Shown here: positions 4,833 through 64,000 of the stretch, one piece after another | Layout: each line of letters starts with the position of its first letter | How positions within the stretch are numbered: position 1 is the stretch's first letter | From: a virus | DNA: 64,000 bases | Direction: 5' to 3' (one strand) | Virus record (IMG/VR): IMGVR_UViG_3300042311_001406 | Location: 1-64,000 of that record | Notes under the pieces: generated by a model | Seen by the model: only the letters and a program-made list of their open reading frames with translations | The model's database searches: none | What the model was told of the DNA's origin: nothing | Position numbers and translations under genes: made by a program

Positions 4833-7800
4833 ATGGTTGAGCCAAGCTACGGTTACGCCGGCACCCTCGACATGCTCTCGCGAAACCGCCCCTCGGAGGG
4901 CGGGAGCAGTCTGTATTCGGCGGCCAGTGAGCTGTCGAGCGCCGCGCGCATCATGCAGATGAGCCAGGGCGGCGTCTCGAACCAAACGCAGGCCATCGCT
5001 GCGATGGCTCAACAGCAACAGCAGCAGTCCCAGCAGATTGCACAGCTGATCAGTGGGCTGAGTTTCAACATCAGCCAGCTGTCTTCTGCCGTTGCGCAGA
5101 GTGTGGGTGCGCAGCGCGCTGCATCGCTCGCCACGCCACCGCTGGTGCAGTCGACTGGCGGCTTCATGCCAGGCGGCTTTGGCCACTCCGGCATGTCGGC
5201 GTTCAACCCGATGCCGATGATGTCGGCGCTCGGTGGCGGCGCGATGGCCGCTGGCCGACTCTTCGCTGGTGGCGCCAATCTGGCGATGCGCGGCATTGGC
5301 TACGCTGGTGGTGCCATGGCGTCGCCGTTCCTCGGTGGCCAGTACATGGGGCCTGGTGCTGGCCAGATGATGGGCACCTTCGGCAACGCAGGCTTCGCTC
5401 GAAGCTTCGCTGGCGGCATGGGCCTGAACATGGGCCTGCGTCCCGGCCAGTTCGCCATGGGCACCGAAGCGGCAGCAGACCGAGCTGGGTTCAAGGCTGG
5501 CGAGATCGCGATTGGTGCTGGTGCCGGCATCATGAATCTCGGCGGCAGCGTAATCGGCGGCCTGGGTCGCATGGGCGGACTGGCGGGCGGTCTTGGTGGC
5601 ATGCTGGGCGGCGCCCTCGGCGGCCAGATGGGGCCTGTCGGCGGCGCCCTTGGCACCATCGGCGGCACGGCTCTCGGCGGCTTCGCTATGGGTGGCCCAG
5701 CGGGAGCCGCGGCTGCCTTGGCCGGTCTCGCCATCACGAAGGCCGTGGAGGCCACCGTCGGCAAGATCGTCGAGAAAGCTGGCGAGATCCGCGGGAGCGG
5801 CGAGATGTTCGGGCGCAACGCGTTCCGCATGGGCGGCTCGCGACGCATGTCTCAGGTCGATCGCACGCAATTCGGCGTCGGCATGAGCAAGATGGCGACT
5901 GAAGACCTGACCTACAACATGCAAGATCTCCAAGAGATCATGGCTGGCGGCATCGAGAACGACATGTTCCGTGGCGTCAACGGCGCGCGTCAGGCTCAGC
6001 AGCGCATGCGCGAACTGAAGGACACCGTCAAGACGATCAGCCAGACGCTTGGCACCAGCATTCGCGAATCCATGGATGTGATGAACTCCATGCAGGGTCT
6101 TGGCATCGCTCCATCTGGCCAGATGAGTGCCATCCTCAGTGGATCAACAATCCAAGGCATGACTCGTGGTGAGGCTCTGCAGGGAAGCATGAGCTTCTCG
6201 AACCGATTTGCTGGCACCGGATTCCAAGGTCGCGGCCTCTTCAATCTCGGCACGCAGAGTCAGGGCCTTGGCCAAACGGCCATGCGCATGGGCCTGCTGA
6301 GCTCTGAGCAAATCGCAGCGGTTGGTGGCCGCCAGGGTGTTGGTCAGGTCATGGGCAACGTGACCATGGGCTTGGCGCAGAGCGGTCTCGGCACGATGAA
6401 CATGGCGGCGGCGATGCGTCGAGGCCATGCCGGTGTGAGCGGGAACGCCATGTCCGCGCTGTCTCAGGCGGGCGGTGCCGGGGGCGCCAGCGATCTCGTC
6501 GACTTCGCCGCCAACAAGAGCGAGTTGATGCGTGACGCCATCAACGATCCAGCGTTCCGCCTCAACATGCTGGCGCAGGTCTCCTCGATCGCCGATCAGT
6601 TTGCTGGTCAGGGCACGAAGAAGAATCGAATGAAGCTGGCGCTCAAGAGCTTCGGCATTGATGGCGCTGAGGCTGGCGTCTTCATGGCGATGATGGAGGC
6701 TGAGCCGCAGGCACAGCGCGACAGGCTCAACGAACTCCAGCGCGCCCGCAGCGACCTGCAGGCGAACCAGATCGCCGAGAACTACGACATTGGCGCTCTC
6801 GCGAGCCGCAAGGTTGGACGTCTGCTTGGTGGCCCTGCGGCGGCTGTGGCACGTGGAGCGGCAACGCTGGGTGACGCCGTCAACAACACGTCGCTGCGGA
6901 TGCGCAATGCCATCTTCGGCATCGGTCCAGACGTGTCGATGCGCACGAGCGATGTCACCGCCGAAGCGGCGCTGGCTTCTTTGAGCCGCACCGGTGTCGT
7001 CGGAGACGCTGGCGTCATCAACAGCTCGCCAACTTCTGACGACCAGAAGATTGCCAAGGACGCCGTCGAGGCCTTGAAGATCGACGGCGACTCCGACTTG
7101 TCGACGCTCCAGAACACGGACAACGACTCTGACAAGAAGACCGCGGCGAGCAGCCTGATCCAGAAGCTGACCCAAAACGTCGGCGACAACAGCCCCGAGA
7201 TGAAGAAGGCGCTGGCGATGGCCTTGGCAGCGGCGACCGGCCAAGACGTCAACGGCCTCCTGTTTGGCAGCGGCGGCATGGGGGCCAGCGCTGAGCGCCT
7301 GGCTGGTGCTCAGGCGATGAACGATGCCCTGCGGAGCGCGCTCACGGGCGGCGGTGAGACCGCGGCAGGCGTTGGCCTGGGGGCAGGCATCGGCATGGGC
7401 ATCGGCGCCCTGCTGTCGCCGTTCACGGGTGGCGCCAGCATCCTGGCCGGTGGCGCCCTCGGCGGCTACCTGGGCAACAAAGTCGCTGGCAACCAGTTCA
7501 GCGACGAAGACATGAACCGCGTGATGCGTTCGCCTGCGGCGCTGCGCATGCTGAAGAACAAGCAGAAGCTCGCCAGCGGCAACCTGTCCGCCGAGGAAGC
7601 CGCCAAGGTTCGGCAGGAGATCAACGCGGACAAAGCCTCGCTGAGCGGTGAAGGCACCAGCGACAACATCATCCAGCGCCTCGACAGCCTGAGTGGTGGC
7701 AGCCTCGACGCGGCAGTCAAGACCATCGTGTCTGGCGCTGCTGATGCGGCCAGCCTTGGCTTCGACCTCTCGCTGCAGGGCGGTATGAGCGCGGCCCGTA

Positions 7801-51540: not shown

Positions 51541-52251
51541 ATGCGGAACAAGTACAGGAAGGATGTCTTCGTCGTTGCCGTGGAAGGCATCATCGGAGCA
51601 GGAAAGACCACGCTCACCAAGCGCTTGCGCGATGAGCTTCATCTGCATGAAGTGCCGGAGCCGGTTGAAGACAACCCGTTCCTCGAAAACTTCTACAAGG
51701 ACCAAAAGAAGTGGGCCTTCCCCATGCAGATGTGGATGGTGCAGCGTCGAGCGGAGTCGATTGCTGACGCCGTCGAAAGTCACAAGAACATCATCACGGA
51801 CCGCAGCCTGGTGGGAGACATGGTCTTCGCCAAGATGCACAAAGACAACGGAAACATCGACGCCGAGATGTGGCCCGTCTACCGCGACACCTGGAGCATG
51901 ATGAACCGCTTGCTGGCACCCGTGCCAGACGTCATCGTCTTCCTGGATGTGAACCCCAGCACCGCGTTCAAACGCATGCACAACCGAGGGAGACAGTCCG
52001 AAGTCGACGGCGTCACACTGTCGTATCTTCAGGATCTCTGTGCCACATACCGCTCCACCATCGAGAAGTTGGGTAGCAACTTCAACGGGACGGAGTCATT
52101 CCGTCATACGCGCATCGAATGCCTCAAAGGAGACACTGATCACGCCGTGATCGTCGACATCGTCAAGCGACACATGGCCAACAAGACCGCCGCTTTCTCG
52201 AACGCCGCCGCCGCCAACGAGTACAACAACGACAACGAGGTCAAGCTGTGA
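51541..52251 (+). CDS. Deoxynucleoside kinase
   Basis: VEGIIGAGKTT P-loop, EPV...L..FY.D, DRS, PDVIVFLD, RGR..E. Confidence 0.9.
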   Translation: MRNKYRKDVFVVAVEGIIGAGKTTLTKRLRDELHLHEVPEPVEDNPFLENFYKDQKKWAFPMQMWMVQRRAESIADAVESHKNIITDRSLVGDMVFAKMHKDNGNIDAEMWPVYRDTWSMMNRLLAPVPDVIVFLDVNPSTAFKRMHNRGRQSEVDGVTLSYLQDLCATYRSTIEKLGSNFNGTESFRHTRIECLKGDTDHAVIVDIVKRHMANKTAAFSNAAAANEYNNDNEVKL

Positions 52252-55200
52252 AGAACACCGTCACGATTCCATCCGCCGACTCCATCGACTACACGCTGAG
52301 CATTGCCGGCGACAAGATCGAGTGCAGGGTCCATAGCATCGACATCGTCAACTTCAACAAGCGTGACGTCGCCATCGAAGGCAGCGGCTTCAAGCAGAAG
52401 GATGTCGAGGCTCCTGACTTCTGGAGCGACACGGCCGTCCGCATCGTCGCCAACAAGTATTTCCGCGGCCACGACAGCGATCGCGAGAACAGCGTCAAGC
52501 AGCTGGTTGCTCGTGTCGTCGGCTCAATCGTCGACTTCCTCGACAGCAAGGACCGTTTCGCCAGCGCCACCGACAAGCACAGCTTCAAAAGTGTCCTGAC
52601 CCATCTGCTCTACGTGCAAGCGTTCGCGTTCAACAGCCCGGTGTGGTTCAACCTCGGCACCGAAGTCAGCCCGCAGTGCAGCGCTTGCTTCATCCTCGGC
52701 GTCGACGACAACATCGAATCCATCCTCAAGTGGATCAACGACGAAAGCCTCGTCTTCCGTCGTGGCAGCGGTGCCGGCGTCAACATCTCCCGCATCCGCC
52801 ACAAGAACGCGCGTCTGCAGGGCGGCGGCCACGCCAGCGGCCCGCTGAGCTTCGCCAACGGCGCCAACTACATGGCCGGCGCCATCAAGAGCGGCGGCAA
52901 GACGCGTCGCGCGGCCAAGATGCTGGTCATGAACGACAACCACCCCGACGTCTTCGACTTCATCGACACGAAGTCGATTGCCGAGCGCGTCGCCAAGGCG
53001 CTGATCGCTGGTGGCTTCAGCTCGAAGTTCAATGCCGAAGGCGGCGCCTACGAGCTCGCCCCCTGGCAGAACGCCAACAACAGCGTGAGCCTGTACGACC
53101 GCTTCCTCAATGCCGTCTTGGTCGACGGAGACCATGACCTCGTTGACCACAAGGGCGCTGTGGTTCGCACCATCAAGGCTCGCGAGCTGTGGCGCAAGAT
53201 GGGTGAGGCAGCCTGGGAATCCGGTGACCCCGGCCTCCACTTCCGTGACACGATGAACCGCTTCAACACGGTCGCAGAAGATGGCGAGATTGAAGCCAGT
53301 AACCCGTGCTGCTTCACCGGCGAGACGCTCGTCGACACCAGCGAAGGAAAGATCCGCATCGACGAACTCGTCGCTCGAAGCCAGCGCGGTGAGGACCTGC
53401 CAATGGCATGGGCCTTTGACCTTGAATCGTCGCTGCCTGTCTTGCGCCGCATCGTCAAAGCCTGGAAGGCCGGCGACGCGACCAAGCTTGTCCGCGTCAC
53501 GACGGACCGCGGCATCAGTGTGTTGTGCACACCTGAGCACCGCTGGCTGAAGCGCAATGGCGCTTGGGTGGAGGCTCAGCATCTGAAAGCTGGGGACAGC
53601 CTGCGCAAAACGGCGCGCTGGGTGAACAAGGATCGCTCTGGTCGCCACTGCTTGAACATGCGTGGCACAGAGTCAGCGCCAAACGGAACCGTCTGGCAGA
53701 ACCGATACATGTGGGAGCAGGCCTATGGACCAATTCCTGACGGCATGGAAGTTCACCACAAAAACGGAGACCCGACTGACGACCGCCTCAGCAACTTTGA
53801 GCTGATCCCTGTCAGCGATCATCGCTCTGAACACTCGGCTGGCGACGAGAACCCACGTTTCATTGACGTGGAAGATCATGTGCTTGTGGAGGCGTGGGAT
53901 GCTGTCGCTGCCGGCAGAAAGCGTGGTTCCGGTGTGACGCCAACAACATGGAACGCACACATCAACAGCAATGGGCTCAAAGGACATCTGCCGTTGGCTG
54001 CATCACCAACGAACGGAGGGCGAATCCAAGGCATGCCTTGGGCGGAGTTCGAGAGCAAGATCAACGAGCTGCGTTCATCTGTGAACGATCGCGTCGTCAG
54101 CGTCGAGTTCATTGCCAACGACACGGCGACATCCGTCTTCGACATCGAAGTTGAAGGCGTGCACAACTTCTCGGTGACCAGCCCCGGCGCTGTTCATTCG
54201 GTCGTGGTGCACAACAGCGAGTACCTGTTCATCAACAACACCAGCTGCAACCTCGCGAGCTTCAACCTCGTGCGGTACATGATCCGTGACGGTCTCAAGC
54301 GCGTGTTCAACTGGCGCGCATTCCAGCGTGACGGCTTGGCGATGTACCTGTGTCTCGACGCCATCGTCGACATCAGCAGCTACCCGACGCCAGAGATCGA
54401 CGAGACGACCCGCAAGTACCGCACGCTTGGTGCCGGGTACGCCAACATTGGCGGCATGCTGATGCGTATGGGCATTCCGTACGACAGCGACGAAGGCCGT
54501 CACATGATCGCCGTCATCACCAGCGCGCTCCAGGGCACCATGGTCTGCAACAGCATGAAAGCTGCTGAGGCCTGGGGCACATTCGATCGCTACGAAGCGA
54601 ACCGTGATCACGTCGACAAGGTGATTCTGTCGCACTACAACGCACAGGTCGGGCTGACCTACAACAAAGACGACGTGGTGTGGAATCCGTGGCAGCACTA
54701 CGAGCAGACTGTCCTGCGAGACAACACGAAGATCGCGCGTGTGCGCAACGCGCAGTTCACGGTCGTGGCGCCCACTGGCACCATCGGCTTCATGATGGAC
54801 GTCGACACGACGGGCATCGAGCCAGACTTCAGCCTGGTGAAGTACAAGGAGATGGTTGGCGGCGGCTACATGACGCTGGTCAACACCGCGATGTCCGAAG
54901 GCCTCGAAGTGCTGGGCTACGATGAGGAGACGCGCAAAGCCATTGAGGCGCACGTCACAACCACTGGCGGTGTCGTCGAAGGCGCTCCCGGTCTGAAGCC
55001 AGAGCACTACGGCGTCTTCGACTGCGCGGTCGCAGCGTTCGGCGGCACACGCTTCATTCGCCCTGAGGCGCACATTGAGGCCATGGCCGAGGCGCAGCCG
55101 TTCCTCAGCGGCGCCATCAGCAAGACCGTCAACATGCCAGAGTCGTCGACGGTGGATGACATCCTCGACATCTACATGAAGTCGTGGAAGCTGGGTCTCA

Positions 55201-55949
55201 AAGCTGTTGCCGTCTACCGCGACAACTGCAAGCAGAGCCAGCCGCTCAGCACCTCGAAGACGACGGACAAGGGCAGCGCCACCGTCATCCTTGAGTCGGC
55301 TCCAGCGACGTCGATGTCTTACGACGACATGACGATCTGCAAGTTGGAAGCGCAGATCAAAGACCTGAAGTCGATCATTGGCAGCCTGCGACGTGGAGAG
55401 CGTGAGCGCCTGTCGACGTCGCACATGGGCCACATCCACAAATTCACCATTCAGGGGATGAGTGGCCACTTGACGGTCGGCTTCTACGACGATGGCCGCA
55501 TCGGCGAAGTCTTCGTCGAGATGAGCAAGGAAGGCAGCACCGTCGGTGGCTTCCTGGACGCCTGGAGCAAGGCATTCTCGCTCATGCTGCAGTACGGCGC
55601 TCCGCTGACTGAAGTCCTGCAGAAGTTCGAGGGCAGCCGCTTCGAGCCATCTGGCTTCACGCTCAACGAGAACATCCGCACCTGCACATCGGTGATCGAC
55701 TACGTCAGCCGCTACATGAAGATGCTGAGCTCAAGCGCACCGAAGGCGGCTCCGATGCTCGACAGTGCCCCTGGCGACCATCAGGTTGAGGAAGGTGAAG
55801 ACGTCGACGATTCGCACGTCCCGTCAAACACGCAGAAGTTCGTCGACACCAATGGTCGCATCTGTTCGTCATGCGGAAGCAGCAACCTGCGTCAAAGCGG
55901 CGCCTGCTTCGTTTGCAATGAGTGTGGCTCAAGCACGGGGTGTGGCTGA
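52248..55949 (+). CDS. nrdJ: Class II (B12-dependent) ribonucleotide reductase, intein-containing
   Basis: FNSPVWFN, QCSACFI, SGGKTRRAAKM, NPC|SE, CNLAS, APTGTI, SGAISKTVN, C-terminal Zn ribbon CxxCG...CxxC..CG. Confidence 0.95.
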   Translation: MKNTVTIPSADSIDYTLSIAGDKIECRVHSIDIVNFNKRDVAIEGSGFKQKDVEAPDFWSDTAVRIVANKYFRGHDSDRENSVKQLVARVVGSIVDFLDSKDRFASATDKHSFKSVLTHLLYVQAFAFNSPVWFNLGTEVSPQCSACFILGVDDNIESILKWINDESLVFRRGSGAGVNISRIRHKNARLQGGGHASGPLSFANGANYMAGAIKSGGKTRRAAKMLVMNDNHPDVFDFIDTKSIAERVAKALIAGGFSSKFNAEGGAYELAPWQNANNSVSLYDRFLNAVLVDGDHDLVDHKGAVVRTIKARELWRKMGEAAWESGDPGLHFRDTMNRFNTVAEDGEIEASNPCCFTGETLVDTSEGKIRIDELVARSQRGEDLPMAWAFDLESSLPVLRRIVKAWKAGDATKLVRVTTDRGISVLCTPEHRWLKRNGAWVEAQHLKAGDSLRKTARWVNKDRSGRHCLNMRGTESAPNGTVWQNRYMWEQAYGPIPDGMEVHHKNGDPTDDRLSNFELIPVSDHRSEHSAGDENPRFIDVEDHVLVEAWDAVAAGRKRGSGVTPTTWNAHINSNGLKGHLPLAASPTNGGRIQGMPWAEFESKINELRSSVNDRVVSVEFIANDTATSVFDIEVEGVHNFSVTSPGAVHSVVVHNSEYLFINNTSCNLASFNLVRYMIRDGLKRVFNWRAFQRDGLAMYLCLDAIVDISSYPTPEIDETTRKYRTLGAGYANIGGMLMRMGIPYDSDEGRHMIAVITSALQGTMVCNSMKAAEAWGTFDRYEANRDHVDKVILSHYNAQVGLTYNKDDVVWNPWQHYEQTVLRDNTKIARVRNAQFTVVAPTGTIGFMMDVDTTGIEPDFSLVKYKEMVGGGYMTLVNTAMSEGLEVLGYDEETRKAIEAHVTTTGGVVEGAPGLKPEHYGVFDCAVAAFGGTRFIRPEAHIEAMAEAQPFLSGAISKTVNMPESSTVDDILDIYMKSWKLGLKAVAVYRDNCKQSQPLSTSKTTDKGSATVILESAPATSMSYDDMTICKLEAQIKDLKSIIGSLRRGERERLSTSHMGHIHKFTIQGMSGHLTVGFYDDGRIGEVFVEMSKEGSTVGGFLDAWSKAFSLMLQYGAPLTEVLQKFEGSRFEPSGFTLNENIRTCTSVIDYVSRYMKMLSSSAPKAAPMLDSAPGDHQVEEGEDVDDSHVPSNTQKFVDTNGRICSSCGSSNLRQSGACFVCNECGSSTGCG
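53310..54215 (+). mobile_element. Intein (302 aa) with HNH homing endonuclease
   Basis: Starts CFTGET, block B CTPEHRW, ends VVVHN before S; internal GPIPDGMEVHHKNGDPTDDRLSNFEL. Confidence 0.92.
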
Positions 55950-56362: not shown

Positions 56363-59200
56363 ATGACGACACTCTTCAACGACGATGACGACGACAGCTT
56401 CTTTGACATCGTCAACATCACGGCGAAGGCAGCTGTGAACAACGCCGCCGCCGCCAAGAAGACGGAGCCCGCAGCAAAGGCGTCGTCATACGGAGACGCG
56501 AAACCCAACAAGGGCAACGAAGCATCGCAAGCCATGACGCGACTCGTCGCCACGATCCCCGGTATCCGCGCGATGCCTGTGCGTGATCGACTGCCATTCA
56601 TTGAAGGATGGGCATCAGAGGCGTTCTGGTCGAAGCCGATGCCTGAACTCATGGAGCAGTGGCAGAAGGAATACGGAAACGACATCGACTACGCCTTCGT
56701 GCTTGGCGATCACTGCGGCCAGGACAGCGGTGACCTCGTCCTCGAAGCCGACAACGAAGCCGGTGAACAGTGGCTGCGCGAGAACGCGCCTGCGACACCG
56801 ACGATGGTGAGCACGCGTCGCGGTTTCAACCACCGCCACTATCGCATCGACATGGCCGGACGCGGCAACCGCATCGACATCTTTGGCAGCGTCAAGAAGC
56901 ACAAGAAGGCGGCCCTGGACGCCGGCTTCAAGGTTGAACTTCCGCGTGGCCGCAAGGCCACCGAAGAAGAGCGCGCCGCACGCGACAGCGAGATGGCGAA
57001 GGCGTTGGCTGCCATCCCGATGGGGCCAGTCATCGACCTGAAGTGCAACGGCGGCCAGGCCATGGCGCCAGGCGGGCGCAACAGCAAGACGCCGAACTTC
57101 CGCTACGAAGAAGTCGGCGGCCTGTGGACGATCGACATGTGGCGCGCGCGTCCCGTGTTCGACCCGAAGTGGTTCCCTGATAGCGTCTGGGCTCGTGAGC
57201 TGGCTGCCGACACGCAGCAAGGCTCGCACGCCAGCTACGACGTCGAATACTGGACCCTGGACCGTCGGGTCTCTGCGGCGATGCGGTACGCGGCCAACAT
57301 GAAGCCGACGGTGAGTGGCGAGGGTGCGCACAGCTCGTTCTTGCGGAACGCCATCCTCATTGTGCGCGGCTTCGACCTCGACGTGCAGTCCGGTCGTCGC
57401 GTGCTCACGTATTGGGGCCAACAGGTCTGTGCGCACGAACCCTGGAGCACCAAGGAGATCGAACACAAGCTCGAATCAGCACTGCAGCAGGGCAAGGAAC
57501 CGATGGGGTTCAAGCTTGCTGCTCGTCGTGGCGATGAGACTGTTGGTGAACGGTACGCGGCCATGATGCGTGCCATGGCCAACGACAGCATGACCGCTGA
57601 ACTCGAAGGCGACCTCATCAGCGAGGTCATGAACGACGCGGCTCCCACCTATCGCAGCGAAGGCAGCGAGGACCAGGACGATGGCACTGTCGATCCGTTC
57701 GACATGTCACCAGTCGAGGTGCCAGCGGCGTCGCCAGCCAGTGCTCTGGCCTCGCAACTCCCGCAGACGACGCCGATGTTTGGTCCCGGCTCTGGGGCGG
57801 CGACGGCAACCAAGATGACGGTGGCGGCTCGTGCGGCCGGCGCCAGCGACGCGGCGCATGGTGCCAGCGACATCGCCGACAGCGAGCGCCAAGTGCTGGC
57901 CGAGCTCGGCATGGACATCGCCGACATCCTCAGCAACCCGAAGATTGGCGTCATCTACAAGCGCATCGAAGGGAAGGTCGTTCGCCTGCCGCCGACGACG
58001 CTGAATCTGGCTCAGTTCCTGATGCACAGTCGCATGTTCAAAGGGCGGCTCCGCAAGAACCTGATGAACCATGAGATGGAGTTCGACAACGTCGGCCTGG
58101 AGAGCATTCACACGCTGAAGACGACGATCGATACGCTGTTCCAGGAAGACGTGCCAAAGGAACGCATCGAGGATTCTCTGGAGACTGTTGGTCTGTACTG
58201 CCGGTATGACCCCAGCCTTGAAGAGTTCGAGAAGCTCCCGCCGTGGGACGGCGAAGAACGGCTGATGCGTGTGGCCGGTGAAGTGCTGCCAGTTGAATCG
58301 GCGAGCCTGTACCTCTCAAAGGTCAAGATGGCGAAATCCATCATGGCGATGGTGGCCCGCACACTTGATCCTGGCTGCAAAGTCGACACGATTCCGATCT
58401 TCATCGGCAAGCAGGGTGCCCGGAAATCGTCGTTCTGGGAGATGCTGGCTGGGCCAAAGTTCTTCTCGGACACCGCAATGCAGAACATCGGCGGCCGTGA
58501 CGAGATGTGGCTCATCTCCAGGTTCCGGGTCATCGAGATTCCTGAGATCGACGGCATGTACTCGAAGCACCAGAACGCGCAGATGAAGGCCTTCTTCTCG
58601 AAGCGACGGGATGACTACCGTCTCCCGTACGCCCGTCGCATGGTCAGCGTGGCGCGACGCAGCATCATGGTCGGCACCACGAACGAGCACGAGATTCTGA
58701 GCGACCCCACCGGCAGCCGTCGGTATTGGCCGATTCCCACCATCGGCAAGGCCCGCCTGGACCTTCTCGGGAAGTGGCGCGACCAGCTGCTGGCGGAGGC
58801 GATTCACAAGGTCTCGGCCCACCTCGTAGCCAAAGCCGCGGGACGTGAAGAGTCAAAAGAGTACAAGGAAGGCATGTGGTGGCTCGATGACCAACAAGAC
58901 GAGGAACGCTCCAAAGACAACCTGAAATACCAAGAAGACGACCCATGGCGGCCAGCGATCGAGGAGTTCCTGCGCCCCATGACACCTGACCACAAGTTCC
59001 AGGTGGCCGACGTTATCGACTACCTCAAGCTGCCGATTGACCGAGTCGCGCGCCGAGACAGCATCAGAATTGCGAACATCCTGAACAATCTCTCCTGCCG
59101 ACGCTTCAACGAGGGAAGACCAACGACCGTCGACAAAAAAAATGGGCGCTGGTGGGAGCCGCCAGCAAGCCAAGACCCTTTGGCGAGCACGGAAGAATAG
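56363..59200 (+). CDS. Primase-helicase (Prim-Pol, PriCT-like and VirE/VapE P-loop domains)
   Basis: LVLEAD, STRRGFNHRHY, IDLK..GG.A.APG; PWS..EIEHKL; PGCKVD...GKQGARKSS, TTNE...DPTGSRRYWP. Confidence 0.88.
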   Translation: MTTLFNDDDDDSFFDIVNITAKAAVNNAAAAKKTEPAAKASSYGDAKPNKGNEASQAMTRLVATIPGIRAMPVRDRLPFIEGWASEAFWSKPMPELMEQWQKEYGNDIDYAFVLGDHCGQDSGDLVLEADNEAGEQWLRENAPATPTMVSTRRGFNHRHYRIDMAGRGNRIDIFGSVKKHKKAALDAGFKVELPRGRKATEEERAARDSEMAKALAAIPMGPVIDLKCNGGQAMAPGGRNSKTPNFRYEEVGGLWTIDMWRARPVFDPKWFPDSVWARELAADTQQGSHASYDVEYWTLDRRVSAAMRYAANMKPTVSGEGAHSSFLRNAILIVRGFDLDVQSGRRVLTYWGQQVCAHEPWSTKEIEHKLESALQQGKEPMGFKLAARRGDETVGERYAAMMRAMANDSMTAELEGDLISEVMNDAAPTYRSEGSEDQDDGTVDPFDMSPVEVPAASPASALASQLPQTTPMFGPGSGAATATKMTVAARAAGASDAAHGASDIADSERQVLAELGMDIADILSNPKIGVIYKRIEGKVVRLPPTTLNLAQFLMHSRMFKGRLRKNLMNHEMEFDNVGLESIHTLKTTIDTLFQEDVPKERIEDSLETVGLYCRYDPSLEEFEKLPPWDGEERLMRVAGEVLPVESASLYLSKVKMAKSIMAMVARTLDPGCKVDTIPIFIGKQGARKSSFWEMLAGPKFFSDTAMQNIGGRDEMWLISRFRVIEIPEIDGMYSKHQNAQMKAFFSKRRDDYRLPYARRMVSVARRSIMVGTTNEHEILSDPTGSRRYWPIPTIGKARLDLLGKWRDQLLAEAIHKVSAHLVAKAAGREESKEYKEGMWWLDDQQDEERSKDNLKYQEDDPWRPAIEEFLRPMTPDHKFQVADVIDYLKLPIDRVARRDSIRIANILNNLSCRRFNEGRPTTVDKKNGRWWEPPASQDPLASTEE

Positions 59201-59217
59201 AAATCTTTGAAGTCAAA

Positions 59218-59244
59218 AGCCACCTTCGGGTGGCTCTTTTTTTT
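59218..59244 (+). terminator. Rho-independent terminator
   Basis: AGCCACC-TTCG-GGTGGCT, then C and a T8 run. Confidence 0.88.
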
Positions 59245-59437
59245 CTTTAGCTTGACTTTTTTCTTTGAATAGAAAAATTTTGACCAATAGAAATATCTGC
59301 AGAGCCTAAAATATTTCTATTCAAAGTTTCACTTCTTTTAGTTCAGCGATTTCTTTGAGTTCAGGCTCCGCAGTTCAAAGAAGTTGCCGGAATTTATTTG
59401 AATCGATAATGTATAGTGAGAAAAAAAAGTGACAAAC

Positions 59438-60155
59438 AAAAGTCAGTCACTTTTCCATGTATACAGTTTTGCTGGGAGCGGTTTTCATGGCTTCAGGATG
59501 CGGCGGCCAACGACGTCGTCGCGCAGTGATCGATGCAAATATACTCTGTAGGAAAAACGCGTTAACAAAAGTCAGTCACTTTTTCAGTCACTAGCTGTGA
59601 AATCAAGGACTTACGCCCGGAATCGGCGCGACCTGAAGCCGCGAACCACTGTCATGATAAAAGTCAGTCACTTCCTTGTAAGTCCTTGTGGCGCCTTCTC
59701 TTTTCCCTCTCTTTTTTCCTTTAGTGACTGAAAATCAGAAAATAGAAACTTTTCGGAGTCGGAGAAAAGCACGGTCGGTCTGCTGGTGCGGCGCACGCGG
59801 GAGTGCTGGCCGGTCCCTGGCTCTGGCGCTGGGCTGGGAAACTTGTTGAATTTCTGAAAAGTCAGTCACTTTTTTAAATTTGCAGCGAATTCCGTTGGCG
59901 CCACAAGGACTTACAAGGAAATGACGAACTTAAAGTAAGGCACTGGGTCGACGGTTCACGGAAGGTCAACTTCCGGCGTAAGTCCTTGATTTTACAGCTA
60001 GTGACTGAAAAAGTGACTGAGAAGTGACAGAGATGAAATCCTACACAGTAAAGTGAACGAGTGTTCTCGTTTTGACGCCGCGTCCGGAAGCCATCCCACG
60101 GCCCCGCGTGCGCACAACAATGGCCGCAAACCCCCGAAAAAAGTCAGTCACTTTT
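59438..60155. repeat. Nine TCAGTCAC cores (extended form AAAAGTCAGTCACTTTT) within a large imperfect palindrome
   Basis: Plus-orientation cores at 59443, 59572, 59584, 59664, 59862, 60144; minus-orientation at 59724, 60001, 60013. Confidence 0.9.
59601..59613 (+). promoter_or_regulatory. IHF consensus site (mirror copy at 59979..59991)
   Basis: AATCAAGGACTTA matches WATCAANNNNTTR. Confidence 0.55.
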
Positions 60156-60220
60156 TTGAGCAGTATATATTTTGGGCAAATTCAGATTCTGGCGTTTTCT
60201 TTGAGTTCAGAACGACACGT

Positions 60221-60245
60221 AAAAAAAGCGGCACGGAGCCGCTTT
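60221..60245 (-). terminator. Terminator-like hairpin
   Basis: AAAGCGGC-ACGGA-GCCGCTTT with an A7 run on the left. Confidence 0.55.
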
Positions 60246-60402
60246 CATCACGAAGCACGCCTGAGCGCTTCAAACCCTGTGAGGGGTTCAGCGCTTTGGC
60301 GGCTTCGTGATGGCTGTCAGGACGTCATCAAGCATGGACATGTGGAACTCCGGAATCTGAGAGGGGGCGCGGCGACCAGCTGTTGGCCGCCTGCTTGTGG
60401 AT

Positions 60403-60470
60403 AAAAAAAACCATCCACCCTGCACCCACCCAGTCCATTGCTGGACCAGATGGGTACAGAGCGAATGGCT
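60403..60470 (-). terminator. Very long terminator hairpin (29 bp, GCAA loop, U-tract)
   Basis: Uninterrupted 29-bp helix on the minus strand with 8 G-U pairs. Confidence 0.8.
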
Positions 60471-60519
60471 GCCCTTGGCCAGGCGCCCTGGGTCAACCAG
60501 GGCGTGGCCAGGAGCGAGC

Positions 60520-61545
60520 TCAGGCCTTGGTCACCGCCGAGGCGGCGGCCAGCTCGGCTGCGGCCTGCTGCTGCACCGTTGCGTTGAGGGCCGGGAGGCT
60601 CTTCATCACCGCGGTCATGGCTGCCTCGACCGCAGCCGCCGTGGCGCGCGCCACGATGGCTTCGATGTCCGGCTGGTTGGCCTTGGCGGCTTCGAGTGCG
60701 GCCGTGGTCGCAATCGTCACGGCCTGCTCGATGTCACGGCTGTGGGACTTGACCTGGCCCATGGCCGCCTCGACTGCCGCCGTCGAGACTTCACGAGCGG
60801 CAGCCACGGTCTCGTTCTTGAGGCGGGTGGTGAAGCCTGCCTCCGCGCCGTAGTACAGACCGTCGCGCTGCTTCTGCTGGCGCACCACGCGGCTGTACAT
60901 GTCCGAGCGCGCCAGGTAGCGCTCGTCGACGTACTTGATCAGCGTGTACCGCATCGACGCGTTCGTGTCGTAGACCGCCTTCTGGGTGCGGCTCGCACGC
61001 TCGAAGATCTGGCGGCGCATGCCGACACGACCAATCGTCGCGCCGGAATACACGTAGCAGAACGCAGCGATGAGGCTGTCGCCCTTGATGCCAAGTTCCG
61101 TGGCGATCTTGCGCATGTCCTCATTGAGGCCACCACGGATCGCGCTGTTGTTGAGCTGGGCCGGGGCATCCATCTCGATGACGTCAGCCACCGAGCGGAT
61201 CTGCTCAATGGTGCTGTCGATGTTCGAGTCCACGAGGAACTCTTCGACCTTGGTCACTTCGAGACGGGCGATCATCGAGAGGAACGCGTCGACGTCGGGA
61301 ACGAAGTGACGCACTTCGGCCTTGTTCTCGATGAGCATGGCGAGCGTTTCTTCGGCATCGCGCAGTGCAGCGTCTTCCGGCATCTTGATCTTGCCGCCCT
61401 CACGCAAAGCAGTCGACAGGCGACCGCCGTGGATGCGCTTGGTGTCCTCAAGGAACTGCTTGTCGGCGCGAGCTTCAGGGCTCGTGCTGCCGAGGATGGC
61501 GGTGGTGACGAAGTTGTTGAGCTTGCGGGTGATGGTGCTGGTCAT
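60520..61545 (-). CDS. Hypothetical protein (341 aa) with Ala-rich helical C-terminus, probably early
   Basis: Strong codon bias, own promoter and terminator. Confidence 0.8.
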   Translation of the reverse strand: MTSTITRKLNNFVTTAILGSTSPEARADKQFLEDTKRIHGGRLSTALREGGKIKMPEDAALRDAEETLAMLIENKAEVRHFVPDVDAFLSMIARLEVTKVEEFLVDSNIDSTIEQIRSVADVIEMDAPAQLNNSAIRGGLNEDMRKIATELGIKGDSLIAAFCYVYSGATIGRVGMRRQIFERASRTQKAVYDTNASMRYTLIKYVDERYLARSDMYSRVVRQQKQRDGLYYGAEAGFTTRLKNETVAAAREVSTAAVEAAMGQVKSHSRDIEQAVTIATTAALEAAKANQPDIEAIVARATAAAVEAAMTAVMKSLPALNATVQQQAAAELAAASAVTKA

Positions 61546-61618
61546 GGTGTTGTCTCTTTCTTTCTGTCAGGCGATCAGTGGGTTACGAGAGAAGCGATCG
61601 CCATATTGATCTTCTCTC

Positions 61619-61652
61619 TACTATATTATACCGCATTTTAGGCGGTATTTTC
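61619..61652 (-). promoter_or_regulatory. Phage promoter motif GAAAA-N14-CGGTATAATATAGTA
   Basis: Shared with 62341..62374 at identical spacing. Confidence 0.75.
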
Positions 61653-61851
61653 ACGATCCAAACGTGTCATACCCGCGGAATGCGGGGTTACACTCAATTT
61701 CTCTGTCTTCAGATGAACCGCTGCCAATGCAGATGTTCAGCCGCCTGGTGGCGTGCCGTTTCCTGTCGATGGCATCCTGACGCTGCAGTTCATCCCTCGT
61801 GTCTCCAGCGGCCAAGTGGAGATCGACGAGCAGGATCATCAACTCATCCAT
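61651..61851 (-). CDS. Small hypothetical protein (66 aa)
   Basis: AGGAG SD, MDELMILLVD... Confidence 0.5.
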   Translation of the reverse strand: MDELMILLVDLHLAAGDTRDELQRQDAIDRKRHATRRLNICIGSGSSEDREIECNPAFRGYDTFGS

Positions 61852-61861
61852 CTGCACGCTC

Positions 61862-62302
61862 CTAGAAGCTGTCGAGGCACAGGCTCTCAGACTCGAAGTA
61901 TCTGTCGCAGACACCATCAAGATCCACTGGGATCTCGAAGCCGTTTTTACCGCAGAACCCGTAGTGGTTCAGGCAGGAGACAGCCTCATAGGTCTCGGCG
62001 TCACACGGGTTGTCGACGAAGTAGTCGTTGTCGGCGCACACCTCGGCAGCCTCGCTCTTCGTCAGGCCGCCATCACACATGGCCTCCTTGACGCAGAGGT
62101 CATGGTTGACGGTGTCGCGCGACAGCCAGGTGATGGGACCTTTGGCTTCATTCGCGCGGTACACGACCTCGACGTCAGGCTCTTGGGTGCAGCCAGTGAG
62201 GCTGGACATCGCAAAGAGGCCGAGCGCTGCGACCCCGAAGACGACGGTGCCATAGGTGGCACCAAAGGCAAAGCACTTCAGGCATTGTTTATTCGTGATC
62301 AT
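61862..62302 (-). CDS. Cys-rich putative lipoprotein/exported protein
   Basis: Hydrophobic segment then LTG-C; multiple Cys; AAGGGG SD. Confidence 0.65.
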   Translation of the reverse strand: MITNKQCLKCFAFGATYGTVVFGVAALGLFAMSSLTGCTQEPDVEVVYRANEAKGPITWLSRDTVNHDLCVKEAMCDGGLTKSEAAEVCADNDYFVDNPCDAETYEAVSCLNHYGFCGKNGFEIPVDLDGVCDRYFESESLCLDSF

Positions 62303-62340
62303 TGGAGCCCCTTAATGAGCACCGGAATGGTTGCTCTTGT

Positions 62341-62374
62341 TACTATTTTATACCGTGAAATGGAGCCGCTTTTC
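62341..62374 (-). promoter_or_regulatory. Phage promoter motif GAAAA-N14-CGGTATAAAATAGTA
   Basis: Shared with 61619..61652. Confidence 0.75.
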
Positions 62375-62415
62375 ATGGTCTACCCCTTGGCCCTGTCGAC
62401 GTGTAGACTTCGCGC

Positions 62416-64000
62416 ATGAGCATCCAGCACGCGTCCTCGACCTTCGACAGCGTCAAGCGCAACCTCGTGGAACACCTCACGAGCTTGTTCCCTCTGGAGA
62501 GCGAGGGTCGAACGTTGCGGCTCACTGGCCCAATCGTGGTCGATGATCGACTGGCGATGGATGACTACGAGGGGCAGCGCGCGGCTCGTACGGCCGGGAA
62601 GTCGTGGACGGTGCCCGTCAAAGCGCCGTTGGAACTCCTGAAGGGCGACCGGGTCATCGACCGGAAGACGGTCAAGCTGCTCGACCTGCCACGTCTGACC
62701 AACCGCGGCTCGTACATCGTTGGCGGCACCGAATACATGTTCCCAGCCCAGAAGCGCCTGCGCTCTGGCGTCTACGTGCGCACCCGCGGCGACGGCACCA
62801 CCGAGGCCATGTTCAACCTCAAGAAGGGCCGCAACTTCTCGGTGGCGATGCACCCGTCGAAAGGGAACTTCGTCATCGAGATCGCGACGACCACGACGCT
62901 GCCGCTCTACCCGCTCCTGCGTGCACTCGGTGTCGAAGACAGCGAGATGGTGAAAGCCTGGGGCCGTGAAGTGTTCACGGCGAACCACATGGTCGAAAGC
63001 AGCGACGCCTACAAGAAGGCACAGCAGCGCATCTTCGACTTGATCTCGTACAACGATCGTCGGGAAGACGCTCAGGTCCCACAGCCCGCAGACATGAACG
63101 CCGCCATCCGTGACAAGATCGGCGAGTCGTCGTGGGATGGCGACAACGTCGAGCTGACTCTCGGCTTCAAGACCGCGGGTCTCGACGGACCCAGCCTCTT
63201 GGCCGCCGCCACGAAGTTGCTCCAGGTGAACCGCAACGAGGCCAAGGAAGACAACCGTGAGTCGCTGATCCACAGCGACATCGTCGACTTGAGCGACTAC
63301 ATCGTCGAGCGCTACAACGACCGCCAGTTCCGTGGCCGCCTGCAGCGCCAGCTTGCCCGCATGGTGGGCAATGCCGACACCGTGACCGACGCGATCCCGC
63401 GTGACGCTTTCCAGCGCCCTGTGAACTCGCTGATGACCGAGGCCGCCATCAGCCGCAGCCCGAACCAGGGCAACCCGCTTGGCATTATGAGCGACTACAC
63501 CGCAGTCACGGTTCGCGGTGAAGGTGGCATCGAGAGCGACCATGCGCTGACGCGTGGCGTGCGCGCGCTCGACCCCAGCCACCTCGGCTTTCTGGACCCA
63601 GCCCACACGCCTGAAGGCGCCCAGATCGGCACGACCCTGCACTTGGCTGCCGGTACCCGCAAGAAGGGCCGCACCTTGGTGACCGACGTGTGGAACTTCC
63701 GCAGCAAGTCTCTCATGGAGGCGACGCCGATCGACATCCACAAGGGCGTCATCGCGTTCCCCGACTTCTTTGACGTCGTCAGCAAGCGGCTCAAGCCGGT
63801 CAATGGGAAGATCAAAGCCATGAAGGCTGGCGAGATCGTTGAGGTCTTGCCTGCAGAAGTCGACATGGCTTTCACGCTCCCAGAGCAGCTCTTCGACACC
63901 AACTCGCTCGCTGTTCCGTTCTTGAGCCACAACAACGGTGTGCGCTTGATGACGGCTGCCAAGATGGGTGTGCAAAGCAAGACCCTGGTGCACCGCGAGG
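62416..64000 (+). CDS. DNA-directed RNA polymerase beta-subunit homolog (phage-encoded), truncated at window end
   Basis: Not in ORF track. LPRLTNRGSYIVGGTEY...QKRLRSGVY; QGNPL...GEGG...VRALDPSHLGFLDPAHTPEGAQIG; VPFLSHNNGVRLMTAAKM. Confidence 0.93.
   Translation, partial: MSIQHASSTFDSVKRNLVEHLTSLFPLESEGRTLRLTGPIVVDDRLAMDDYEGQRAARTAGKSWTVPVKAPLELLKGDRVIDRKTVKLLDLPRLTNRGSYIVGGTEYMFPAQKRLRSGVYVRTRGDGTTEAMFNLKKGRNFSVAMHPSKGNFVIEIATTTTLPLYPLLRALGVEDSEMVKAWGREVFTANHMVESSDAYKKAQQRIFDLISYNDRREDAQVPQPADMNAAIRDKIGESSWDGDNVELTLGFKTAGLDGPSLLAAATKLLQVNRNEAKEDNRESLIHSDIVDLSDYIVERYNDRQFRGRLQRQLARMVGNADTVTDAIPRDAFQRPVNSLMTEAAISRSPNQGNPLGIMSDYTAVTVRGEGGIESDHALTRGVRALDPSHLGFLDPAHTPEGAQIGTTLHLAAGTRKKGRTLVTDVWNFRSKSLMEATPIDIHKGVIAFPDFFDVVSKRLKPVNGKIKAMKAGEIVEVLPAEVDMAFTLPEQLFDTNSLAVPFLSHNNGVRLMTAAKMGVQSKTLVHRE

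Follow-up and report, generated by a model that had tools for sequence, protein, structure and literature searches.

A candidate replication origin with mirrored iterons downstream of a primase-helicase gene in an uncultured phage

The gap that follows the primase-helicase gene in the IMG/VR virus record IMGVR_UViG_3300042311_001406 holds short oriented repeats (iterons) arranged in a nested dyad symmetry on a scale of approximately 480-720 bp, with a dyad core at positions 59542-60050. We propose that this locus is probably the lytic replication origin of the phage and that it is recognised by the adjacent primase-helicase, which, by analogy, would be a self-loading initiator of the SaPI Rep / pRN1 ORF904 type (SaPI, staphylococcal pathogenicity island). 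The window analysed here consists of the first 64 kb (64,000 nucleotides) of this 91,322-bp record, which is classed as linear and approximately 50% complete, with a GC content of approximately 60%.

This proposal is based on the confinement to the locus of all nine record copies of the 9-mer TCAGTCACT, on the mirror statistics, on the location of the gap, which follows the primase-helicase gene and adjoins the lowest-GC window of the record, and on the protein itself, whose helicase matches SaPI1 Rep1 and for which a C-terminal winged helix is predicted. In addition, SaPI and pRN1 origins lie just downstream of their initiator gene, and repeat clusters follow the VapE genes of two other viral contigs, described below as G001 and L006.

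Repeat families of the locus

The gap is a non-coding stretch of approximately 960 bp with a local GC content of 46%, flanked by two convergent, terminated genes. It contains no credible open reading frame (ORF): the candidate at 60072-60404 has a GC content at third codon positions (GC3) of 0.51, versus approximately 0.78 for the genes of the record. The repeat-bearing stretch begins approximately 240 bp past the primase-helicase stop codon, and all of its repeat families (boxes A to D), as well as the other mirrored blocks, are confined to the locus within the 91-kb record.

Box A is the 9-mer TCAGTCACT, the nine record copies of which all fall inside 59443-60152 (710 bp). They are found on the plus strand at 59443, 59572, 59584, 59664, 59862, and 60144, and on the minus strand at 59723, 60000, and 60012, so that at least two copies per side run in opposite directions, as is characteristic of SaPI-type iterons. 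The inverted core of the inner left arm occupies 59723-59731 (minus strand). Box A also has a long form, the quasi-palindromic 17-mer AAAAGTCAGTCACTTTT, which is exact at 59438, 59567, 59857, and 60139 and carries two mismatches at 59659, all five copies being on the plus strand. The first long copy (59438-59454), the inner right copy (59857-59873), and the outer right copy (60139-60155) are among them. An earlier note on this DNA, made from the letters and predicted reading frames, had placed quasi-palindromic boxes at 59438 and 60139, and exact AAAAGTCAGTCACTTTT is indeed found at both; as both lie on the plus strand, they are direct copies of a quasi-palindrome and not a mirrored pair.

The second family, box B (GTAAGTCCTTG, 11 nt), has four copies, at 59604 (minus), 59678 (plus), 59904 (minus), and 59978 (plus), which form one inverted pair, 74 bp apart, in each arm. 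These copies bear on the mirrored IHF sites of the earlier note. The IHF consensus WATCAANNNNTTR, relevant if the host has IHF, occurs in the window only at 59601 (plus) and 59979 (minus), with 0.43 matches expected. Both matches are in the same repeated block and thus represent a single independent occurrence. Moreover, they are simply two box B copies preceded by AAT, and the remaining pair of box B copies does not fit the consensus. The consensus matches themselves are real, and as IHF sites they are tentative candidates.

Box C (TTTCTTTGAGTTCAG) is a direct repeat, with identical copies (15/15) at 59350-59364 on the left and 60196-60210 on the right, both on the plus strand, and a degenerate copy at 59332. 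It extends to a 19-mer, GCG(A/T)TTTCTTTGAGTTCAG, at 59346-59364 and 60192-60210 (18/19 identical, 846 bp apart). These direct repeats bracket the whole dyad and break its mirror symmetry; they might represent an additional binding site, or have arisen as a target duplication when a cassette was inserted. The AT-rich left flank harbours four copies of box D (GAATAGAAAT), which is likewise unique to the locus.

Mirror symmetry of the locus

Every arm pair and box listed in the earlier note is present where it was placed. A global self reverse-complement alignment of 59400-60200 yields a score of 278, versus -101 ± 27 (maximum -18) for block shuffles that keep local composition. The locus contains one inverted repeat, with 124-nt arms at 59572-59695 and 59897-60020 that are 80% complementary and separated by 201 nt.

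Symmetry was also evaluated by ungapped mirroring about x+y=119592, for which random mirror pairs are 26 ± 7% identical, with a 99.9th percentile of 48%. Mirror identity reaches 98% over 59572-59617, 100% over 59672-59695, and 92% (11/12) over 59542-59553, the latter block (TACTCTGTAGGA, partner 60039-60050) being unique to the locus. It amounts to 56% in the spacer at 59618-59671 and to 17-42% in other stretches. Two further pairs mirror with a displacement: the outer blocks at 59487-59510 and 60071-60094 are 83% complementary over 24 nt, with a centre shifted by 6 nt, and the AGTGACTGA pair (59723-59731 and 59862-59870) is displaced by 1 nt. Of the seven mirrored pairs, five share a centre within ±0.5 nt, which indicates that spacer lengths were kept though spacer sequence drifted, as the earlier note had suggested.

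The left 124-nt unit (59572-59695) comprises, from its outer end, box A cores at 59572 and 59584, box B on the minus strand at 59604-59614, the drifted spacer, box A at 59659-59675, and box B on the plus strand at 59678-59688. The right unit (59897-60020) is its mirror, with box B at 59904-59914 (minus) and 59978-59988 (plus), a degenerate box A at approximately 59921, and box A cores at 60000 and 60012 (both minus). Within these units, the box-bearing blocks are 98-100% mirrored, whereas the 56% spacer shows no compensating changes, which points to selection on sites rather than on arm pairing. At the level of sequence, this pattern favours protein-binding sites over a purely structural hairpin. 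An assembly artefact was also considered and is ruled out by the diverged arms and by the intact, unique flanking genes.

Base composition and folding

The GC-rich centre and the AT-rich left flank of the earlier note are both confirmed. The centre (59746-59846, approximately 100 bp) has 64-74% GC, is not symmetric, and shows a mirror identity near background; it contains a small palindrome, GTGCGGCGCAC, at 59786-59796. As single-stranded DNA (ssDNA), this centre gives no structure signal (z +0.2 on both strands), and it matches no Rfam family. Rfam (E up to 1) and ARAGORN return nothing credible.

The left flank (59201-59500), with 35% GC, is the lowest 300-nt window of the 91-kb record, and is a candidate unwinding region. 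It carries the four GAATAGAAAT copies and a hairpin at 59263-59326 (z -3.6 as ssDNA). Each arm also contains an AT-rich pocket (32-36% GC) between opposed iterons, at 59696-59722 and 59871-59896. In the left arm, the opposed box A copies enclose an AT-rich, all-pyrimidine tract of 29 nt (59694-59722, plus strand), a candidate melting/priming zone; it is the sole homopurine/homopyrimidine run of at least 18 nt in the record and is unmirrored on the right. The window 59700-59749 has 32% GC.

The adjacent primase-helicase

The proposed initiator (945 aa) is encoded on the plus strand at 56363-59200 and has an N-terminal PrimPol domain, followed by an SF3/VapE helicase and, towards its C terminus, a predicted winged helix. 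The VapE-like helicase domain (superfamily 3, SF3) spans residues 627-853 (Pfam VapE-like_dom, E 2.6e-54). The PrimPol domain lies at approximately 67-241; its match to Prim-Pol (E 2e-4) is just short of the Pfam cut-off and is clearer in homologues, the closest of which (P0002-P0007) are 33-50% identical. When a profile of seven homologues (A1) was searched against PDB, it gave a single match, to 7PDS (E 2.8e-40), with residues 585-820 aligned to chain positions 82-317. This structure is SaPI1 Rep1 bound to DNA (PMC9371898).

A winged helix is predicted at approximately residues 860-943. The AF2 model of the C-terminal 146 aa (pLDDT 82.7) shows helices followed by a beta wing in this interval, and its structural matches are nearly all winged-helix DNA-binding domains (Z 5.3-7.0). 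For example, the iteron-binding C-terminal domain of 7pds_A (346-474) aligns to the model with a Z of 5.9 and a root-mean-square deviation of 3.2 over 80 aligned residues. Foldseek matches are winged-helix domains too, but weak (E >=0.2). The modelled architecture, PrimPol plus SF3 helicase plus winged helix, is that of SaPI5 PriRep5 and pRN1 ORF904.

We also observed that a VapE-family gene is the main gene of a 3,117-bp Microcystis aeruginosa plasmid (NZ_AP024567.1; H38 in the plasmid collection), an arrangement that fits a role of VapE proteins in initiating plasmid replication.

Repeat clusters after the primase-helicase gene in other genomes

Relatives of the phage were reached via its RNA polymerase, and the comparison of repeats is based on the related genome G001 and on the contig L006. 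Among the RNA-polymerase relatives, only G001 was found to encode an orthologous primase-helicase: 31 more distant related records and four of the five closest lack the protein, and in none of the 38 related loci does its gene lie within 10 kb of the RNA polymerase gene. The G001 genome is 155,932 bp long and 96% complete, and its primase-helicase, which has PrimPol and VapE domains, is 31% identical to the protein studied here.

In G001, 8 of the 13 genomic copies of ATGGGAC (four forward and four reverse, ATGGGAC/GTCCCAT) are located within 307 bp, at 127344-127650 (positions 690-1010 of the extracted locus L052). This cluster sits in a reduced-GC stretch, 0.5-0.8 kb downstream of the primase-helicase gene, from which it is separated by an ORF of 153 aa without Pfam match, and includes a perfect 23-nt palindrome, CTGTCCCATGGGCCATGGGACAG. 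L006 (IMGVR_UViG_3300047661_000059) is an unrelated viral contig of 47% GC with a 787-aa VapE gene. From 9 bp past the VapE stop codon, its positions 6362-6560 carry four or five direct copies of TTGGAGCA and two inverted ones, followed by a strongly AT-rich run of approximately 60 bp. Judged by its sequence, this is a compact, textbook-looking candidate origin.

Locus-unique repeats in both orientations thus follow the primase-helicase gene in three of three lineages. Each lineage has its own repeat word, which is what initiator-specific iterons would predict. The earlier note had proposed a search for analogous palindromes after the primases of relatives; repeat clusters do follow the gene in both G001 and L006, but the large dyad does not recur. 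No large nested dyad was detected in G001, which has only short local palindromes (local self reverse-complement score 41, versus 22 ± 3 for shuffles).

At the DNA level, the phage collection contains no counterpart of 59200-60400, and blastn with 59201-60520 against the rest of the record, G001, and the 38 related loci yielded nothing. Searching IMG/VR with the box 17-mer returned only five single chance matches, in low-GC contigs. In pattern scans with the protein or the A1 alignment, run on viral, metagenome, and genome collections, the only matches were two distant partial ones, L006 and L007.

The comparison with G001 also shows that the locus (59200-62416, compared using L053-L060) lies at a synteny breakpoint. 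Genes on its left (4.8-59.2 kb) are reversed in G001, where they run from 50 kb down to 13 kb and then from 154 kb down to 128 kb, whereas genes on its right (62.4-91 kb) have the same orientation in G001 (61.8-85 kb). This gene order is compatible with one large inversion whose two ends lie at the origin-like repeats and immediately ahead of the RNA polymerase gene.

A model for initiation at the locus

If the locus is the lytic origin, the winged-helix domains of the primase-helicase would bind the nine TCAGTCACT iterons. Each arm has two tandem iterons spaced by 12 bp, another one 80 bp further inward, and an opposed copy 60 bp beyond it, and one or more helicase rings could assemble per arm, in opposite orientations. 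As the right arm mirrors the left, rings would load oppositely, approximately 300 bp apart. Melting would take place in the 35%-GC left flank, in the pockets at 59696-59722 and 59871-59896, or in both, after which the PrimPol domain would lay the first primers and forks would leave both ways. Box B (GTAAGTCCTTG) may bind an accessory bending factor or extrude as a stem-loop after melting. Binding, melting, priming, and directionality are all inferred. The earlier note had described the locus as a two-fold symmetric nucleoprotein platform, most likely a bidirectional origin. An origin-type platform agrees with the position of the locus, the homology to 7PDS, the predicted winged helix, the SaPI and pRN1 precedents, and the repeats of G001 and L006, while the bidirectional part is what we infer.

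Several observations weigh against an origin at this site. Two of them concern the locus itself: its global centre is rich in GC, whereas SaPI origins have an AT-rich one, and, as neither G001 nor L006 has a large nested dyad, the symmetry itself is not conserved. The winged-helix fold matches of the proposed initiator are of modest quality, with Z below 8 and Foldseek E values of 0.2 or more. At the scale of the genome, transcription of the left genes runs towards the locus and would meet a leftward-moving fork head-on, and GC skew tracks gene orientation and does not switch at the locus in either this record or G001. The skew switch that the earlier note had offered as a check is thus missing, and the measure is uninformative both in the record and in the near-complete G001. 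Finally, only approximately 50% of the genome is in the record, and a further origin could exist elsewhere.

By analogy, each arm alone resembles a complete SaPI-type origin, with three iterons pointing the same way, an AT-rich pocket, and an opposed iteron. A tentative possibility, clearly less probable than the general proposal of an origin recognised by the primase-helicase, is therefore that of a twin origin, in which a complete Rep-type unit (opposed iterons, AT/pyrimidine pocket, box B stem-loop pair) has been mirror-duplicated around a GC-rich clamp. A symmetric nucleoprotein, approximately 700 bp in extent and with two separate melting zones, would in that case be formed by several primase-helicase rings together with a second factor bound to box B. 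In addition, the cassette may be mobile or recombinogenic, since 19-nt direct repeats bracket it and it lies at the inversion breakpoint relative to G001.

Alternative explanations

The locus might instead be an origin that works as folded ssDNA, with the initiator assembling on a cruciform, a large hairpin, or two 124-nt stem-loops extruded once the DNA has melted locally. There is precedent for this in pRN1 and in phage BIP-1 (PMC4234260), and the 736-nt region folds as ssDNA at -175.8 kcal/mol, versus -103 ± 6 kcal/mol for shuffles (z -11.6). Within each 124-nt unit, the box B pair forms a stem of 11-12 bp with a 63-nt loop (z -1.2 to -3.9). We regard this explanation as unlikely, given that the spacers show 56% mirror identity without compensating changes next to box-bearing blocks at 98-100%, that the centre yields no structure signal, and that G001 has no large dyad.

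The boxes might also form a transcription-control zone, box A being the operator of a dimeric regulator for leftward promoters, antisense transcription, or termination between the convergent gene pair. Box A does have the form of a dimer-like site (AAAAGT-N5-ACTTTT), and four sigma-70-like matches are found on the minus strand, versus 0.7 expected, each overlapping or abutting box A. These promoter-like sites have no gene downstream, since transcripts from them would enter the primase-helicase gene at its 3' end, and they carry little weight because the phage encodes its own RNA polymerase and sigma factor. Moreover, nine sites over 700 bp, together with a second motif family and mirror symmetry, go far beyond what an operator needs, and the same layout follows VapE genes in unrelated contigs. 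A regulatory role of this kind thus seems quite unlikely.

Could the locus be a relic of an inverted duplication, or a cassette inserted at a rearrangement hotspot, without present function? The 19-nt direct repeats (18/19) at 59346 and 60192 that bracket the dyad would suit such a history, as would the location of the locus at the breakpoint between the G001-inverted and G001-co-linear blocks. Yet neutral decay would neither keep blocks of 46 nt and 24 nt at 98-100% with neighbouring spacers at 22-56%, nor hold spacer lengths within ±0.5 nt, and no other copy is found in the record, in G001, or in the 38 related loci. We consider a functionless relic very unlikely.

The packaging or genome-end site (cos, pac, or telomere resolution), which the earlier note had kept as an alternative, is the least probable of all, despite the large dyad symmetry typical of cosN and tel sites, the lambda gpA-type terminase, and the IHF-consensus match, because the terminase gene (70228-72123) is 10 kb away and the G001 repeat cluster lies 0.5 kb from the primase-helicase gene but 57 kb from the terminase gene. 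Telomere resolution specifically is excluded by the non-palindromic centre of approximately 100 bp; a search for ParB, integrase, and protelomerase families found none among the 61 ORFs of a record from which half of the genome is missing.

Flanking genes

The primase-helicase gene is followed by an intrinsic terminator at 59218-59245 (plus strand), which consists of a 7-pair GC-rich stem and a T run. The right boundary of the gap is a convergent 341-aa gene (60520-61545, minus strand; GC3 0.85 versus typically approximately 0.78), whose product has an Ala-rich C-terminal repeat and no Pfam or PHROG match. Two terminator-like hairpins with T runs follow it on the minus strand: one of 20 pairs at 60406-60463, and a second at 60218-60252 (recognised from inverted repeat I20 and its sequence).

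Between the start of the 341-aa gene and that of the RNA polymerase gene, approximately 870 bp (61546-62415) contain no convincing ORF, the longest one (61799-62419) having a GC3 of 0.58 and a low-complexity translation. This region may be a long divergent promoter region or contain a missed small gene. The single-chain RNA polymerase (2041 aa) is encoded from 62416 onwards, and the large terminase, of the lambda gpA type, at record positions 70228-72123. Upstream of the primase-helicase gene, a class II ribonucleotide reductase gene (52248-55949) is split by an intein with an HNH endonuclease (Pfam).

Comparison with known origins

Two-fold symmetric sites at which two helicase rings are placed head to head are known from the SV40 core origin, the papillomavirus E1 site, and oriL/oriS of herpes simplex virus 1. 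Their cores span 27-144 bp and place an AT-rich element on the dyad or next to it, whereas the present locus is five to ten times larger and has a GC-rich centre. Satellite phage P4 provides another comparison: its alpha protein is a primase-helicase with a C-terminal origin-binding winged helix, which binds octamer iterons in direct and inverted orientation. P4 requires two sites, ori and crr, several kb apart, and its helicase falls in another branch of SF3.

In pRN1, a stem-loop of approximately 100 nt located 54 bp past the end of orf904 serves as the origin, and the authors who described it reported the same arrangement after the replication gene of Bordetella phage BIP-1; it is the structure of the pRN1 origin that is conserved, not its sequence, and no iterons have been identified in it (PMC4234260). 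The phage locus resembles it in following the gene for a prim-pol, SF3, and winged-helix protein, with a dyad element just downstream, past the terminator. It differs in that sequence blocks of the arms are conserved while spacer pairing has decayed, and in that G001 lacks a large dyad, so that a conserved structure is not what is found here.

The closest likeness is to the pri-rep-ori modules of SaPIs. The SaPI ori, approximately 300 bp long and immediately downstream of rep, carries 5-7-nt iterons oppositely oriented around an AT-rich region; the Rep winged helix binds these iterons, presumably with one hexamer per side, and AT-rich segments between inverted iterons have been proposed as extra melting points (PMC9371898; bioRxiv 10.64898/2026.10.17.759575). 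As in SaPI1 Rep1 and SaPI5 PriRep5, the putative phage initiator would be a self-loading SF3 protein with a fused or partnered primase and a C-terminal winged helix, and its origin would directly follow its gene (gene end at 59200, terminator at 59218-59245, first iteron at 59438). Short iterons occur in both orientations on both sides, with AT-rich segments between opposed iterons. Unlike in SaPIs, the array extends over 480-720 bp with a 9-nt iteron core (versus approximately 300 bp and 5-7 nt), the iteron set is mirror-duplicated around a GC-rich, non-symmetric centre of approximately 100 bp, and a second, 11-nt repeat family is interleaved. The main AT-rich zone is located outside the dyad, in place of a single central AT-rich region, and the host element is a large lytic-type phage rather than a satellite.

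Iterons after a primase-helicase gene are a rule encountered many times in the literature, of which the locus is one more instance. To our knowledge, no origin has been mapped for the clade of uncultured phages of approximately 150-190 kb with a single-chain RNA polymerase. For these, the locus and the adjacent initiator constitute a precise candidate, comprising a fragment of approximately 750 bp and one protein.

By these likenesses, the locus shows most of the defining features of a SaPI/pRN1-type, Rep-linked origin, a kind already known. Its unusual traits are the nested dyad of approximately 480-720 bp, the GC-rich, non-symmetric centre, the second repeat family, the mirror-duplicated iterons, and the 9-nt core. 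According to the SaPI structural papers, how self-loading SF3 helicases place two rings is still unresolved (PMC9371898; bioRxiv 10.64898/2026.10.17.759575), and the mirrored iteron sets, GC-rich core, and second family of this locus could reveal how they do so.

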